A stretch of 64,000 bases of DNA from an uncultured candidate division Zixibacteria bacterium (lineage in GTDB: Bacteria; Zixibacteria; MSB-5A5; UBA10806): positions 160,001-224,000 of the forward strand of contig CAWFQL010000012.1 in assembly GCA_963817915.1 (NCBI GenBank), given 5' to 3'. The position numbers are program-made. Shown in pieces: positions 27,001-33,000 of the stretch (its first letter is position 1; the number at the start of each line of letters is the position of its first letter).

Positions 27001-30000
27001 AATATCGCGGGTCAGCGTTTTATCGGAAGAACAGTGCCCGTCGATTCCGCAACTATAGTGATTACATTTCCGGATAATTGGGTATTCAATTTTCGGGTAG
27101 CGCCTGAAATTAATTTGCCTTCTAATAAGGTCTATACCGGAGTCTCAAAGTCGACATCTCTCGTCAGCCATATATGGAGCGTTCGGAATCTTGGCTCACT
27201 GATAAAGGAAGAATTCGCGCCCCCGGTCGAACGATTGATTCCATCGATCTATTTCTCATTCAAATATGACAAGCTATGGTCGGAAGATAATATTCGAGAA
27301 ATGAATTGGAATGTTATCGCTCGTTTTTATGGCGGGGAATTCAATGATTTTATAAAAGATCATTCTATTCTCGACAATGTCGCCGACTCCATAAAATCAA
27401 TCGATACCAGCGCGATGCAAATGGCAAAATCGGGTTTTAAATGGTTAACGGAGCATTTTCGAACCATAAATCCAGAATTAAAATTCTCAAAGGATCTCGA
27501 TGAAACCCTGGAAAAGGGAAGAGCAACTCAGGCTGAAGCGGCGTCGATCCTTTTCGGGCTATTTTCAAAACTTGGTATTAATTGCAAACCATTTCTTGCT
27601 TCCTCTCGAAAAGTCGGGAATCCATTGATCGATGTTCCCGCGTTATTCTGGTTTGATCGGATTTTAATCGCATCGTATATCAATGGCGATACAATTTGGA
27701 CGGATCCCTTTTATCTCAATTTCAATTTTACTCTCATGCCATTTGAAGACCAGGGCGTTTACGCGATGGATATAGGGAAGGATGGTGGAAATTTCATTAT
27801 TACCGCCACTCCCGATTATCGTGATAATGGCATGGCTGTCCATATGAAACTCGATATCGACTCGCTCGGCGCGATAGAAGGGGCGGCCACCGAAGTGTAT
27901 TCAGGTGCCATGATAGCGGAGATTTCTTCTTATATGGCCTCGCTCGATCCCGCAGTATTAAAGACCACATGGGAAAAGAGCCTGGCAAAATCATTTCCCG
28001 GAGTCAAAATAGGCAATTTCATAACTTTGGCATCGGATTCTATCGGCCAGACCTACAGAATAGGATATTCATTTACCACTTCGCCTCTCGTTCGGCCTTA
28101 TGCAAATCGCGCCTATTTCCCGATTGATATTTTAGGGCGATGGAAGAGTTTGCCAATTCTGCCATCATTGGATCGAATTTTCCCGATTGAAATCAATCGG
28201 CCGCGATTTGAGCTTGAACGAATAACTCTCAATATCGCTCCCTCCTTCGAAATTGAGTACCTGCCCGAAAACTATTCTATGGATAATTATTTGGGGGAAT
28301 TATATTCGGTGGTGCGCCAGGATTCGCGCTCGGTAACAATTACTAAGGGGCTCGGCCTAAAAAAATCGGAATTGCCGCCTTCAGCTTACACGACCCTACA
28401 GAAATTTTTCAACAAGGCTCGCGCCGAGGCAGATAAACAGATAATACTTAAAAAGGTCGATTGATTATGCCCGAATTGCCCGAGGTAGAAACCATCGTCA
28501 ATGATTTACGGCCCGAAATCGTGGGGAAGAAAATTGTTGAGATCAATTGCATCACACCGTCGACATGGCGTAATAAAATCCCAGAAAATGATTTGATGAT
28601 CGGCTCGAAAATCGATTCTATCGGACGAAGGGGCAAAAATATACTAATTTATCTATCCAATAATTTAGTTTTAATTGTCCACCTCAAAATGACCGGCCGA
28701 CTCATATACGAACCTGAATTAGCCCCGCTGACAAAACACACTCATTTTATCGCGAAATTAGATCAAGGCTTTCTCCGCTTTAATGATGTTCGCAAATTCG
28801 GCTATATCGATCTTGTCGATGCGGATAAATTGGAATCGATAGAATATCTTAATAAGCTCGGACCAGATGCTCTAATTATCTCAAAATCGGATTTCATAAA
28901 GATAATTAAAAGTAAAAATCGAATTGTCAAATCGTTGCTGTTAGACCAGACAGTTATCGCTGGAATAGGCAATATCTATTCCGATGAAGCGCTTTTTATG
29001 GCGGGCATTAATCCTCGTGCCATCAGTTCAAAATTGAGCGCGGAAAAGGCCGGATTGCTTCATAATGCGATAATCTCAACCTTAAAAAAAGCCATCAAAT
29101 CAAGGGGATCATCTGTATCAGATTATGTCGACGGCTCAGGCAAGCCCGGTGGGTTCCAATATCATCTAAAAGTATATGGACGAGAAGGCGAACCCTGTCG
29201 CAAATGCGGCAAGCCCATAAAACGAGTCAAACTCGGCAGTCGTTCCAGCCATTATTGTTCTCATTGCCAGAAAATGAATAACCCCATTTAAGTGCTGATT
29301 AGGTATAGGAAATTTACTCGAATTTATATGGCTTTTTCGTAAATTCGATATCTTTTATATATTTTGGCGCCCATATCTGTCGCGGCTTTAGTCATGAGAG
29401 TATTCCGTTCCAGGATCCATGAGAGTTCGCCCCATGTATATCCGCATTCAAGCCCGTATTTGTATGTATCGACAAAAAATATCATATCGAGGCCGATCTT
29501 ATGGTATTTATGAACAATACCCATCGTGATCAATCTAACGCCCGATAATATTTTATTTATCTTTGTGTAATAGAGGAACTTCAACGCCCCTAATGGGAGC
29601 ATGCGGCCGTTCATTTTCTTGAATATCGGATTATAATCGGGCAGCGCTAATGAAAATCCCGCAGGCTCATCATCGACAAAAGCGAGCAAAGCCAACTTGG
29701 GCTCCAATATTTTCTTGAAATCATCGGCGGTTACCTGGAATTCCTCCGGCGTCATCGGTACGAATCCCCAATTTTTGCTCCATGCCGCGTTGTAGATTGT
29801 CCTGATTATCTCAAGCTCACGATCGAAATCGTTCATGTTAATTGAACGGGTTTTAATTCTCTGCCGAGTTCGTATTTTCTCAACTATTTTAAGTATCCTC
29901 TCCGAAGGCATATTATGCTGATCTATATAAAATGCCAACAGGTCCTCGGCTTTTTGAAGTCCCATTTTCTCGCAAAGCCCCTGATAATAAGGCGGATTGT

Positions 30001-33000
30001 AGGTCATCATGAATGTCGGGTATTTATCGAAACCATCGATTAAAAAACCTATCTCATCGTTGGTGGAAAAATTCATCGGCCCCCGAATGATATTCATACC
30101 CTCATTTTTTACGAATTTTTCCGCCTCCGCCATCAACGCATTAGCCACATCGAGATCATCGATACAATCCAAAAATCCGAAAAAGCCGGTCTTTTCCTCG
30201 TGAAAGCTATTGTGAAGATCATTGACAATTCCCGCTATTCTGCCGACTGCCTGGCCATCTTTATATGCCAGATAATACGTTGCTCGCGCATGCTGGAAAA
30301 ATGGGTTATGCTTTTTGTCGAAAAACTTTTTTCGTTCTGAAATCAATGGCGGGACATAATACTTTTCATTTTTGTAGAGCCTGAACGGAATCTTGATGAA
30401 TGTCATCAATTCATTGTTGTCTTTTACTTCGCGAATTTCCACAGCGGCCATCTATATGATCTCCATCTTTTTCCCGATATCATGGAATGTCTGCAAAACC
30501 TTGTCGATTTGGGCATCGGTATGCGTAGCGGTATAGCTGGTGCGGATCAACGCCTGCCCCGGCGGCACCGCCGGCGCGATTATCGGATTTGTGAATAGTC
30601 CCGCCTCGGTCAATGCTTTCCAGAAGGCGAATGTCTTCATGTCATCGCCGATGAATATTGGCACAATGGGAGTTTCCGTGGTGCCGATTTTGTACCCCAT
30701 CGCCTTGAATTCCTTATGCACGCGATGAGTAATTTCCCAGAGTCGTTTGCGCCTTTCAGGTTCTTCCCGCAATATTTTCAAGGTTGCCCTGACTGCGGCC
30801 ACAGCGGCCGGAGGCGGCGACGCTGAGAATATCAAGGCTCGCGAAAAATGCTTCACGTAGCGAATGACATCGTCATCTGCCACTATAAATCCGCCGAGCG
30901 ACGCGAATGATTTCGAAAATGTCCCCATGATAATATCGACTTTATCTTCTAGATGGAAATGCTCCGCGGTGCCGCGTCCATTCTCGCCCAGGACGCCGAT
31001 TGAATGAGCGTCATCTACCATTACCCTGGCTTTGTGTTTCTTGGCGAGATGGGTAATCTCGGGCAACTTGGCAATATCGCCTTCCATCGAAAATACGCCG
31101 TCCGTAATAATAAGCTTACCGCGGGCTCCGTCATTTCGTTCGAGCAGACGGCCAAGCTCATCCATATCATTGTGACGGTATTTCTTGAATTCGCCGAATG
31201 ACAGCCTGCAGCCATCGACTATCGACGCGTGATTTGATCTATCTCCGAAAATATAATCATCTTTTCCTGCTACAGTGGAAATCGTTCCCTGATTGGTTTG
31301 GAAGCCGGTAGAAAAGACCAATGCAGAGTGTCTTCCCATAAAATCCGCAAGTTCTTCTTCCAATTTCACATGTATATCGAGCGTGCCATTGAGAAATCTC
31401 GATCCGGTGCATCCGGAACCGTATTTATCGACCGCGGCATGAATAGCCTCTTTGACCTTCGGATGGTCTGTCAGGCCAAGATAATTATTCGAGCCGATCA
31501 TTATTACTTCCTTCCCCTCGGCAATGACAACTGTGCCGGGGGATGAGGAAATTCGCCTGAAATACGGATACAAACCTGCGGCCTGAATCTCTTTATCGGC
31601 CTGGAAATTTCTGCATTTTTCAAATAAATCCATCTGGGATCTCCGAATAGTCATAATCAACTTGCTACACGCTGATTTTTCAGCTAATTTACCACCATAA
31701 AAATGAAATTATTCAATGAGCTACAAAATGTCAAGGAGATAAAGGCGAATGGGCACAGCGCTGGTCACAGGGGCTAATGGGTTTGTAGGTTCACATATTT
31801 GTGAGGCCCTGATTGCGTCCGGGTACGAGGTAAAGGCTCTTGTCAGAAAGACTTCCGATCTCACCAATATAAAAAACCTGAATGTCAAATTGGCTTACGG
31901 TGATTTGAACCAGCCGGAAACGCTGCCCGATGCTCTTCAAGGCGTAGATTTTGTCATTAATAACGCCGGCCTTACAAAAACCCTCGACAATTCACAATTC
32001 ATCCAGGTCAATGCTATCGGCACCAGAAATATCCTGCAGGCGATTCAAAACCATGCGCCTAATATCAAACGGTTCGTGCTGATTTCATCTACGGCGGCAA
32101 GCGGCCCGTCATCATCGATGACCCCGATCACAGAAGACCATGACCCCGGCCCTCTCACATTTTACGGCAAATCGAAATTACAGGGCGAGAAAGAAGCCCT
32201 GTCATTCAATTCGATAATCCCCATTACTATTCTAAGACCATCTGCAATCTATGGCCCGCGCGATAAAGAGATGCTTTCATTCTTTAAAGCCGTCAAGGGT
32301 AAGCTGAAGCCGACATTCGGATACGGCGATAGCTATATTAACTTTACCTATGTAAAAGATCTGGCCGGGGCAGTAGTCAAATCACTTTCAGTCAATACGC
32401 CATCCGGTGAGATATTTTTCGTTACGGAGAAAAAGGCCTATTCCTACAGCCAGGCAGGTGATATAGTGGCTGAAATTTTCGGCGTTAAAGCCTATGATCT
32501 GCATATTCCTCTATGGCTGATCTCCAGCGGCGGGAAAATATCCGAGATTATTTCCAAAATAAAAAACGAGGCTTCCATATTAACTTATGACAAGGCCAAA
32601 GAATTCCGGGCCAAATATTGGCTGGTCGATTCATCCAAATTGGAAAAGCAGCTTGGATTTGTCTGCCCGACAGATTTCAAATCCGGATCAATCGAAACCA
32701 TCGAATGGTACCGCAAGCTGGGGATGCTATAATGAATTTTGATGTCAATCGAGCCCGCTCAAATTTTACTTTCGAAGAGGGACTTATTTTTCTCGATCAC
32801 GCTGGTCATTCGCCGCTATCTAATCCTACCCGGGCCGCATATGAGAAATATTTCAATAGTTGGCAGAAAACCGCGCACCGCCATGATAGCGAATCATTCA
32901 AAATGTTCGAAGATCTGCGCGTCAAGCTTGCCTCAATGATAAATTCAGAGCCAAAACATATCGGGCTTGCCCCGCATACATCATACGGCCTTAATATCGT

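Follow-up and report, generated by a model that had tools for sequence, protein, structure and literature searches.

The locus described here raises the question of whether an uncultured bacterium of the candidate division Zixibacteria encodes a pathway for ceramide, and how closely such a pathway would resemble that of Caulobacter. The ceramide pathway of Caulobacter crescentus, composed of Spt, bCerS (or CerS) and CerR, is reportedly described in Stankeviciute et al. 2022. Homology and gene context make it likely that the locus encodes a bacterial three-step route to (dihydro)ceramide. Within the stretch of 64,000 nucleotides that was analysed (the window), three intact ORFs are present at 29324-32732, and the three-gene cluster that an earlier note had placed at 29324..32715 is found there with the correct start; its end lay 17 nt before the stop codon, the true end being 32732. 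The features, together with a fourth gene (AT5), are the following:

29324..30451, minus strand: ORF of 375 aa, bCerS-like tandem-GNAT N-acyltransferase, putative ceramide synthase
30452..31660, minus strand: ORF of 402 aa counted from TTG 31660, serine palmitoyltransferase (Spt), CFB-like
31634..31748, no strand: region between the divergent Spt and CerR genes, about 115 nt long on the assumption of an Spt start at 31633
31749..32732, plus strand: ORF of 327 aa, CerR-like extended SDR, putative 3-oxo-(dihydro)ceramide reductase
32732..33877, plus strand: ORF of 381 aa, class-V PLP-dependent enzyme (AT5; Pfam Aminotran_5)

For Spt, the ATG at 31633 (393 aa), which has a GGAG 8 nt upstream, is a more probable start than the TTG at 31660. 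The TAG stop codon of Spt abuts the ATG of the bCerS-like gene with a spacer of 0 nt, and the TAA of CerR overlaps the ATG of AT5 at 32732 (TAATG); both pairs are predicted from this arrangement to be translationally coupled. The region 31634..31748 presumably holds the shared promoters of Spt and CerR; a scan for consensus promoters returned 16 sites against 14.5 expected, with no excess over chance.

In the proposed route, 3-ketodihydrosphingosine would be formed from L-serine and a long-chain acyl thioester by Spt, a soluble PLP-dependent alpha-oxoamine synthase (AOS). The amine of this product would be N-acylated by the bCerS-like tandem-GNAT protein, predicted to be encoded on the same transcript, and the divergently transcribed CerR-like SDR would finally use NAD(P)H to reduce the 3-keto group. 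Acyl-CoA is the probable form of the thioester, since the searches turned up neither a dedicated ACP nor an acyl-ACP synthetase: the ACPs of Sphingomonas and Roseomonas, used as tblastn queries, gave no match in this genome (G000) at E<=1e-5, a search that short proteins can escape, and neither an ACP (AcpR) nor an acyl-ACP synthetase (AasR) is present among the annotated neighbours at 24753-36487. The analysis establishes the integrity of the genes, their homology, fold, synteny, fusions, distribution and vertical inheritance, and we infer the substrates, the order of the steps, the acyl donor, the cellular location and that ceramide lipids would reach the outer membrane; LpxC and BamA are both encoded in this genome, with scores over their cut-offs.

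Spt has a fold-type I PLP domain (Pfam Aminotran_1_2, E 1.5e-63), and its best NCBIfam model is NF047600 (SerpalmtaseCFB), with 559.6 bits, versus 420.6 for gly_Cac_T_rel (the next of the other families), 409.7 for KBL, 403.5 for BioF and 362.4 for the alphaproteobacterial type of Spt; all three Spt models are within the top six and the CFB one is first. Unlike the CFB enzymes, the protein scores under the curated equivalog cut-off of NF047600 (559.6 < 640), and none of the 285 Zixibacteria genomes passes it. We read this score as that of a sister clade outside the training set of the model, the formal test being failed all the same; the Spt of Sphingomonas does pass its own NCBIfam cut-off (833 > 670). 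NF047600 at E<=1e-120 also matches Bacillus subtilis, so this threshold is not fully specific. As the earlier note had claimed, the closest homology is to Sphingobacterium: the best PDB match is the solved SPT of S. multivorum (8guh, 3a2b), aligned end to end over residues 11-400 with 428 bits and E 3e-127, versus 308 bits for the best KBL or BioF structure. This match agrees with the position of Zixibacteria in the FCB group. The lysine of ..GTFSKS.., the Asp and His of DDAHS and the His of NHAS, which we take to be catalytic, align with those of S. multivorum SPT. Further AOS paralogues are encoded elsewhere in this genome, and the Sphingomonas Spt (42% identity, E 3e-100), used as a query, recovers the Spt of the window with 277 bits versus 205 and 185 for paralogues, as a reciprocal best match. 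By sequence comparison the protein is clearly Spt-like, and characterised Spt enzymes are nearer to it than KBL, BioF or HemA.

The bCerS-like protein has no match to any Pfam or NCBIfam model, and its relatives carry PF00583. A putative member of the family of CC_1154 (CCNA_01212) and E. coli YghO, it aligns over its full length with the N-acetyltransferase of the Sphingomonas parapaucimobilis sphingolipid cluster (33% identity over 383 aa, E 1e-73), of which it is the sole and reciprocal match in this genome, and with the homologue in the Roseomonas cluster (32% identity over 376 aa, E 2e-66); the homology to E. coli YghO claimed previously was recovered when the search was re-run (34.7% identity, E 1e-67). 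The homologues of actinobacteria, alphaproteobacteria and E. coli are all closer than the one from Bacteroides (29.6%). E. coli contains YghO without Spt and is not known to make sphingolipids; the substrate of bCerS is therefore not fixed by membership of the family alone. The AlphaFold model (pLDDT 94.9, pTM 0.91) has as its best Foldseek matches tandem-GNAT N-acyltransferases (2wpw, 7q3a, 5kf1 and MshD 1ozp; E 4e-14 to 1e-11, query-normalised TM 0.55-0.62), and a tandem-GNAT fold like that of amine N-acyltransferases can be predicted with confidence. The two-GNAT-domain fold is shared with mycothiol synthase MshD (1ozp), a glucosamine N-acetyltransferase (5kf1) and MAB_4324 (7q3a), whereas sequence identity to these enzymes is only 9-14%, and the members known work on sugars or thiols with acetyl-CoA. 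By analogy, the chemistry would be the acyl-CoA-dependent N-acylation of a primary amine, with a long-chain acyl donor suggested by the context, including a fusion of a bCerS-like domain to a fatty acyl-AMP ligase (P0258). A functional link to Spt is indicated by the 0-nt spacer, by the presence of both genes within 150 nt of each other in 34 of 39 sampled genomes and by natural fusions of a bCerS-like domain to an Spt with the CFB type as best match (P0175, a cluster with three full-length members from different sources, and P0268). The coupling and the fusions favour the order proposed for Caulobacter, acylate first and reduce later.

The CerR-like protein, a putative member of the NDUFA9-like extended SDRs of the CC_1164 family, matches Pfam Epimerase, 3Beta_HSD and NAD_binding_10, and contains a GxxGxxG motif at residues 8-14 (TGANGFVGS) and YGKSK (YxxxK), both aligned with the NAD(P)H-binding gene located directly upstream of ACP-Spt in Sphingomonas, to which it is 28% identical over 322 aa (E 4e-37). 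This positional cerR, searched against the genome, finds the CerR of the window with 122 bits versus 88 for the next paralogue, as a reciprocal best match. The best profile match is HpnA, and the neighbouring NCBIfam models (HpnA, SdmB, OleD) are ranked alike for both proteins. In a FastTree phylogeny the CerR-like protein groups with the Sphingomonas gene and apart from the paralogues of this genome (support 81, long branches), and Zixibacteria copies linked to Spt and unlinked from it also form one group with the Sphingomonas gene, apart from paralogues. The protein would thus be a divergent orthologue of the positional cerR, by a modest margin (28% identity, 122 versus 88 bits, support 81). 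Its N-terminus opens directly with the Rossmann motif, with no signal peptide seen on reading the sequence, and the aligned Sphingomonas CerR likewise opens with this motif; the Caulobacter CerR, in contrast, has been reported as periplasmic (PMC11087976).

Each of the three proteins of the cluster is the reciprocal best match of its positional counterpart in S. parapaucimobilis, with full-length similarity at 28% identity to cerR, 42% to spt and 33% to cerS. The three enzyme families are common to this locus and the Caulobacter/sphingomonad pathway; as in that pathway, a cytoplasmic location is likely for Spt and bCerS, and CerR belongs to the NAD(P)-binding extended SDRs. The S. parapaucimobilis order (NAD(P)H-binding protein, ACP, Spt, then LptF, LptG, desaturase and N-acetyltransferase) matches the Caulobacter layout as given in passages of PMC11324152 (CC_1164 cerR, CC_1163 acpR, CC_1162 spt, CC_1156/1155 lptF2/G2, CC_1154 cerS). 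Spt and bCerS are adjoining and coupled here, whereas about eight genes separate them in Sphingomonas and, according to the same passages, in Caulobacter. In Bacteroidota, in turn, the main text of PMC11334938 reports the three ceramide genes as dispersed, in contrast to the cluster found here. No homologues of LptF2/G2, a ceramide kinase-like protein, a CDP-alcohol transferase or CpgD were recovered from this genome by tblastn at E<=1e-5. The label Caulobacter-type, used in the earlier note, does not strictly apply to a cluster for which neither a dedicated ACP nor an acyl-ACP synthetase could be located, and it is imprecise in detail also in view of an Spt that is nearer the CFB type than the alphaproteobacterial one.

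The survey, enlarged from 50 to 285 Zixibacteria genomes, gave matches to bCerS in 273 genomes (129 of 130 genera), to Spt in 262 and to CerR in 255. The earlier proposals of a conserved cluster with homologues of the trio and of a phylum-wide bCerS are supported, and the claimed universality proved right for Spt and bCerS, both near-universal, and not for CerR, which moreover lies apart from Spt in 17 of the 39 genomes sampled. Five high-quality genomes lack an Spt match; four of them contain a partial Spt (55-65% identity), located at the first bases of a contig in three cases and beside bCerS in three, and the bCerS match of the remaining genome ends at the edge of the fetched locus, without its first 31 residues. 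Most of these misses sit at contig breaks. The Spt and bCerS trees recover 12 of 12 multi-member GTDB families with 20 family-label changes, the minimum possible (shuffled mean 35.9, none of 200 shuffles as low); vertical inheritance of both genes through almost the whole phylum is supported in this phylogenetic sense. In family f2, which belongs to the same order, Spt and bCerS persist and CerR was matched in one of ten genomes, the other nine having no match at E<=1e-30 and the best matches being only 22-32% identical. No CerR-like gene lies beside Spt in the three f2 loci sampled, where the ORFs checked encode a phosphoglucomutase and a response regulator (two loci) or a PEMT-like protein (one locus). 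Given these nine f2 genomes, the claim that the aminotransferase and reductase lie next to each other in 20 or more of the 23 genomes examined in the order could not be reproduced. The divergent Spt-CerR pairing is kept in 22 of the 39 genomes and in 13 of 19 sampled families.

A survey of Black Sea MAGs (ISME J 2024, PMC11334938) predicts sets of Spt-like, bCerS and CerR genes in 38 phyla by the same inference, three-gene homology and co-localisation in uncultured anaerobes. Zixibacteria has 0 occurrences in that main text and its preprint, the phylum list being in figures and supplements, outside this count. Judging from the scores, the present locus would pass the E-value and coverage thresholds given there; phylum-wide conservation, vertical inheritance and the AT5 partner are not addressed in the main text. 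The novelty is therefore smaller than claimed before, the type of pathway being already predicted so widely, and Zixibacteria would represent a sound new lineage for a known three-enzyme pathway, a modest novelty.

AT5, a conserved fourth gene that the first reading had overlooked, belongs to Pfam Aminotran_5 (E 5.9e-44) and keeps a lysine aligned with the PLP-lysine motif of SufS; in the PDB it comes closest to cysteine desulfurases and a cystine C-S lyase, with only 72-80 bits. Among the 22 sampled genomes with an Spt-linked CerR, 20 have AT5 after CerR, as do 10 of 12 loci with an unlinked CerR (one partial), where CerR also keeps an ORF of about 140 aa for a membrane protein with four TM segments. 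Found in 239 of the 285 genomes (0/10 in f2, 0/6 in f12), AT5 is a frequent, conserved and putatively coupled accessory of CerR.

Enzymes of the AOS family readily switch their amino-acid substrate, and it is conceivable, if quite unlikely, that the AOS and the tandem-GNAT protein make a related N-acyl lipid of another kind, an amino-ketone or amino-alcohol (for example a 1-deoxy-ceramide built on alanine, a cysteate-based sulfonolipid or a lipid derived from glycine), and no canonical serine-derived ceramide. The Spt score below the curated cut-off, here and in every Zixibacteria genome, fits such a product, as does the coupling to CerR of a PLP enzyme that resembles cysteine desulfurases and C-S lyases; the solved cysteate-C-fatty acyltransferase (28eh), however, reaches 241 bits versus 428 for the solved Spt, and the ranking of the three Spt models, with CFB first, also points to Spt. 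This alternative moreover overlaps with the ceramide reading, as bacterial Spt enzymes have been reported to make 1-deoxy bases. Also in its favour, 1-deoxy and sulfur-bearing sphingolipids are described as abundant in anoxic water in PMC11334938.

The other alternative, which we consider unlikely, concerns the reductase: the CerR-like SDR, the four-TM protein and AT5 could form a separate module for lipid or envelope modification, its proximity to Spt being fortuitous in part of the phylum, and another enzyme, or none, would carry out the reduction. CerR keeps the four-TM ORF and AT5 even when unlinked from Spt, so it may serve another pathway, and f2 retains Spt-bCerS without AT5 and nearly without CerR; the HpnA profile match and the low identity to the positional CerR are in line with this. 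Against it, the protein shares with the Sphingomonas cerR a reciprocal best match, the same ranked model neighbours and a common group in the tree, and the divergent pairing with Spt is found across most of the sampled families, all of which argues for the putative ceramide reductase. AT5, in addition, is separable from CerR, as family f12 has CerR in five of six genomes and AT5 in none.

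The locus is likely to direct the synthesis of ceramide-type lipids, by way of a serine palmitoyltransferase (Spt), then a bacterial ceramide synthase (bCerS) and then a ceramide reductase (CerR). The three-gene cluster described in the earlier note is confirmed, with its interpretation partly supported, and its three ORFs are intact at the place claimed; the end coordinate then given (32715) was short, lying 17 nt before the stop codon of the CerR-like gene. The genes are arranged as follows:

29324..30451, minus strand: bCerS-like acyltransferase (375 aa, intact ORF)
30452..31660, minus strand: Spt (402-aa ORF, listed from TTG)
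31749..32732, plus strand: CerR-like reductase (327 aa, intact ORF)
32732..33877, plus strand: AT5, a class-V PLP enzyme, starting on the CerR stop

A more likely start of Spt, the ATG at 31633 with GGAG 8 nt upstream, gives a protein of 393 aa, which is the length of most of its relatives (as open frames). The ATG of the bCerS-like gene directly follows the TAG stop of Spt (spacer of 0 nt), the CerR-like gene is divergent from Spt with about 115 nt between them, and the AT5 start overlaps the CerR stop (TAATG). G+C content is even over the region (0.41-0.47), and a promoter and terminator scan found sites no more numerous than in shuffles. Since every ORF is intact and conservation extends over the 285 genomes, pseudogenes or chance ORFs are ruled out.

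Spt is a PLP-dependent alpha-oxoamine synthase (AOS; Pfam Aminotran_1_2, E 1.5e-63). Of the NCBIfam models, NF047600 (serine palmitoyltransferase, CFB type) fits it best, at 559.6 bits, followed by the BioF/Kbl subfamily (420.6), the beta-proteobacterial Spt (420.1), KBL (409.7) and BioF (403.5). Among solved structures, the SPT of Sphingobacterium multivorum comes first (E 3e-127, 428 bits, residues 11-400), ahead of sphingomonad SPTs (about 313 bits) and the best KBL or BioF (308 bits). Its score does not reach the curated NF047600 cut-off (640), and therefore the formal equivalog test fails; that cut-off is passed by 0 of 285 Zixibacteria genomes. The other reading, that this protein is the KBL or BioF of the genome, is ruled out by separate AOS paralogues in G000, the window's own genome (contig C12 at 674898-675959, 676367-677485 and 88901-89689), so that the window Spt is not the organism's sole AOS enzyme.

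Named distant relatives of the bCerS-like protein were reached by tblastn against plasmid records, which returned homologues from Sphingomonas parapaucimobilis and Roseomonas, and also E. coli YghO (34.7% identity, E 1e-67), bearing out the similarity to YghO proposed earlier; the literature search returned no relevant paper on YghO function. In S. parapaucimobilis the genes encode, in order, an NAD(P)H-binding protein, an ACP, a class I/II aminotransferase, an ATP-binding protein, LptF, LptG, a desaturase and an N-acetyltransferase, which equals the Caulobacter layout given in PMC11324152 (cerR CC_1164, acpR CC_1163, spt CC_1162, lptF2/G2 CC_1156/1155 and cerS CC_1154). The window Spt matches the class I/II aminotransferase (42% over 365 aa, E 3e-100), the bCerS-like protein the N-acetyltransferase at the cerS position (33% over 383 aa, E 1e-73), and the CerR-like protein the NAD(P)H-binding protein at the cerR position (28% over 322 aa, E 4e-37). 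When the three Sphingomonas proteins were searched back into the whole of G000, the window gene came first for each: with 277 bits for Spt (paralogues 205 and 185), as the sole match for bCerS, and with 122 bits for CerR (next paralogue 88). The Sphingomonas Spt scores above the NCBIfam cut-off that applies to it (833 > 670). At E<=1e-5, no homologue turned up in G000 for the dedicated ACP, for LptF2/G2, or for the DAG-kinase-like protein, the CDP-alcohol transferase or the NTP-transferase. The Sphingomonas record itself (NZ_CP155753.1, 'plasmid unnamed5', 385 kb) contains the complete sphingolipid cluster along with obgE, proB and lptF/G, and resembles a chromid or part of a chromosome more than an ordinary plasmid.

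The bCerS-like protein has no match in Pfam, NCBIfam or, by sequence, among solved structures. It belongs to a family of 1588 clusters at 50% identity (E<=1e-30), in which PF00583 is present in some relatives (source annotation 'N-acetyltransferase') and a search of protein-cluster names gave generic GNAT names only. Its AlphaFold model, built with 30 diverse relatives (pLDDT 94.9, pTM 0.91), resembles the tandem-GNAT amine N-acyltransferases 2wpw, 7q3a, 5kf1 and MshD 1ozp (E 4e-14 to 1e-11, TM 0.55-0.62). Two metagenome cluster representatives of this family, P0175 (780 aa) and P0268 (777 aa), have an N-terminal domain best matched by the CFB-type Spt model (470 and 539 bits) and joined to a bCerS-like domain at the C-terminus, and a third, P0258 (940 aa), has the bCerS-like domain fused to a fatty acyl-AMP ligase. 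The P0175 cluster has 3 full-length members of different origin, whose contigs reach 819 kb, and the P0268 cluster 2 members; in the Spt tree both Spt-bCerS fusions fall, on long branches, within the Zixibacteria clade. Together with the 0-nt spacer, the fusions argue that the acyltransferase acts directly on the Spt product, with a fatty acyl donor. This fits an order in which acylation comes before reduction, and also the compartment model of PMC11087976, in which Spt and bCerS are cytoplasmic and CerR is periplasmic.

The reductase assignment is the weakest link of the pathway reading. The CerR-like protein is an extended SDR (Pfam Epimerase, 3Beta_HSD and NAD_binding_10) with GxxGxxG and YGKSK motifs. 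The NCBIfam models nearest to it are HpnA, LegB, SdmB and OleD, the last two having lipid substrates, going by their NCBIfam names; Sphingomonas cerR likewise has HpnA, SdmB and OleD as neighbours, ranked as for the window SDR. In a FastTree phylogeny, CerR-like copies linked to Spt, unlinked copies (in two groups that follow taxonomy) and Sphingomonas cerR come together with a branch support of 81, and three G000 paralogues lie outside. Some genomes of family f7 (f1-f20 being the GTDB families of Zixibacteria) have a second, distinct SDR after AT5 (Epimerase / NAD_binding_4; loci L074:11417-12475 and L073:5856-6911), which groups with the paralogues, apart from CerR.

Distribution was surveyed in 285 Zixibacteria species genomes (one class, 20 families, 130 genera), 198 of them of high quality (>=90% complete, <=5% contamination).

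Table. Genomes and genera with a match to each protein (query and threshold; all genomes; high-quality genomes; genera)
bCerS-like (window protein, E<=1e-10): 273/285; 196/198; 129/130
Spt (NF047600, E<=1e-120): 262/285; 193/198; 121/130
CerR-like (window protein, E<=1e-30): 255/285; 184/198; 117/130
AT5 (window protein, E<=1e-35): 239/285; 172/198; 103/130

NF047600 also matches the Bacillus subtilis control, so that the threshold set for Spt falls short of full specificity; most Zixibacteria matches lie at 1e-155 to 1e-183. Among the five high-quality genomes without an Spt match, four carry a partial Spt (55-65% identity), three of these starting at the first bases of a contig and three adjoining the bCerS of the same genome; in the fifth, the bCerS match ends at the edge of the fetched locus, without its first 31 residues. 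Of the two high-quality genomes without a bCerS match, one has a contig end 10 nt past Spt, and the other is G141. The phylum-wide occurrence proposed in the earlier reading holds for bCerS and Spt, and not for CerR in f2, a family of the same order as G000, where one genome in ten has a CerR-like match (E<=1e-30). In five f2 genomes that are 95-99% complete, the best SDR matches have 22-32% identity (E 3e-32 to 3e-18) and the best class-V matches 24-27%, and therefore both CerR and AT5 are lacking there, with Spt and bCerS kept. In f2 (G239-G248), the ORFs checked beside Spt encode either a phosphoglucomutase accompanied by a response regulator or a protein resembling PEMT.

Spt and bCerS are vertically inherited in the phylum. 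The Spt tree (IQ-TREE, quick mode) and the bCerS tree (FastTree, as for CerR) each recover all 12 families with at least two sampled members, with 20 label changes each, the minimum possible (shuffled mean 35.9, 0/200 shuffles as low), and the Spt tree places f1 as the sister family of f2 (support 99). Horizontal acquisition within the phylum finds no support in these trees, in which the placement of outgroups and fusion proteins is unsure because of long branches.

Synteny was compared at 40 loci of 39 genomes in 19 families (all except f14), picked for listed coordinates and mostly long contigs. Spt and bCerS are separated by 150 nt or less in 34 of 39 genomes, by 1-5.3 kb in four (f15-f17) and by 23 kb in one (G208). 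None of the genes inserted in f15-f17 looks related to the pathway; among them are SIMPL/DUF541, PIN and CMD genes, a metallophosphoesterase together with an AAA protein, and two Pfam-less ORFs. The CerR-like gene is divergent from Spt in 22/39 genomes (f1, f3-f6, f11-f13, f15 and f17-f20) and not beside it in 17/39 (f2, f7-f10 and f16). Where CerR is linked to Spt, AT5 comes after it in 20 of 22 genomes, and at unlinked CerR loci in 10 of 12, one of them partial; an ORF of about 140 aa is next at 10 of these 12. This ORF lies between CerR and AT5 in most families (L074:9687-10106, with equivalents in L073-L084, and also at L037-L039, L043, L044, L057 and L058), and there is none in the window or in G000 (tblastn, 1e-3). 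It looks like a four-helix membrane protein from the one sequence translated, and a Pfam scan of four gave no family for three and a weak DUF1761 likeness for one.

AT5 is absent from f2 (0/10), f12 (0/6) and f14 (0/1). Among solved structures it comes nearest to cysteine desulfurases and to a cystine C-S lyase, at just 72-80 bits, and a relative outside the phylum, at one Krumholzibacteriales locus, is 36% identical and has none of the cluster genes inside 5 kb of it. It is conceivable, and in our judgement improbable, that CerR, the four-helix protein (missing from the family of G000) and AT5 form a module going beyond 3-keto reduction, in which AT5 would modify the ceramide or its long-chain base, perhaps through the addition of an amino or a sulfur-containing group. 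Zixibacteria would in that case produce an undescribed sphingolipid class, and f2, having lost CerR and AT5, would produce 3-oxo-ceramides.

Both the pathway and the three enzyme families are already known, and the locus is a solid instance of it, phylum-wide and inherited vertically, not a new system; the gain is a well-documented new lineage, with leads, and the known pathway stays as it is. To our knowledge, Zixibacteria has no cultured member. If the genes work as proposed, ceramide-type lipids would be ancestral in a phylum widespread in sediment and soil, which would become a likely added source when environmental ceramides or long-chain bases are read as biomarkers, and sphingolipid-containing outer membranes in the FCB group would reach past Bacteroidota. 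Whether acylation precedes reduction in bacteria is still debated; independent comparative support for this order comes from the close coupling of Spt to bCerS and from the natural fusion proteins, and the loss of CerR in f2 offers a natural test of the reductase requirement. With the same three queries on Black Sea metagenomes, PMC11334938 reports 1271 MAGs with Spt-like genes, raising the number of phyla from the 9 that it attributes to Stankeviciute et al. 2022 to 38; the main texts of that paper and its preprint do not name Zixibacteria, and the full-text literature searched held nothing relevant pairing Zixibacteria with ceramide, sphingolipid or palmitoyltransferase.

LpxC and BamA are above their curated cut-offs in G000, which is therefore, by inference, a diderm with lipid A. 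The LpxC match (C12:72056-72958, outside the window) lies in a 494-aa open frame, far longer than its model (297 positions), which suggests a fusion to a second domain. Downstream of the cluster lie kdsB, pyrG, a small ORF and a last ORF that presumably resembles KdsA; among the sampled loci, this linkage of Kdo genes to the cluster is confined to f1 and a single case in f18. Upstream (24753-28464), two adjacent large DUF3857 and transglutaminase-like proteins are followed by fpg, a position kept in f1 and f2. kdsB (CMP-Kdo synthetase, 34065-34806) is split, with its N-terminal part in frame 34065..34259 and the rest in 34186..34806, and the frameshift near 34200-34260 may be either an assembly error or a sign of a broken gene.
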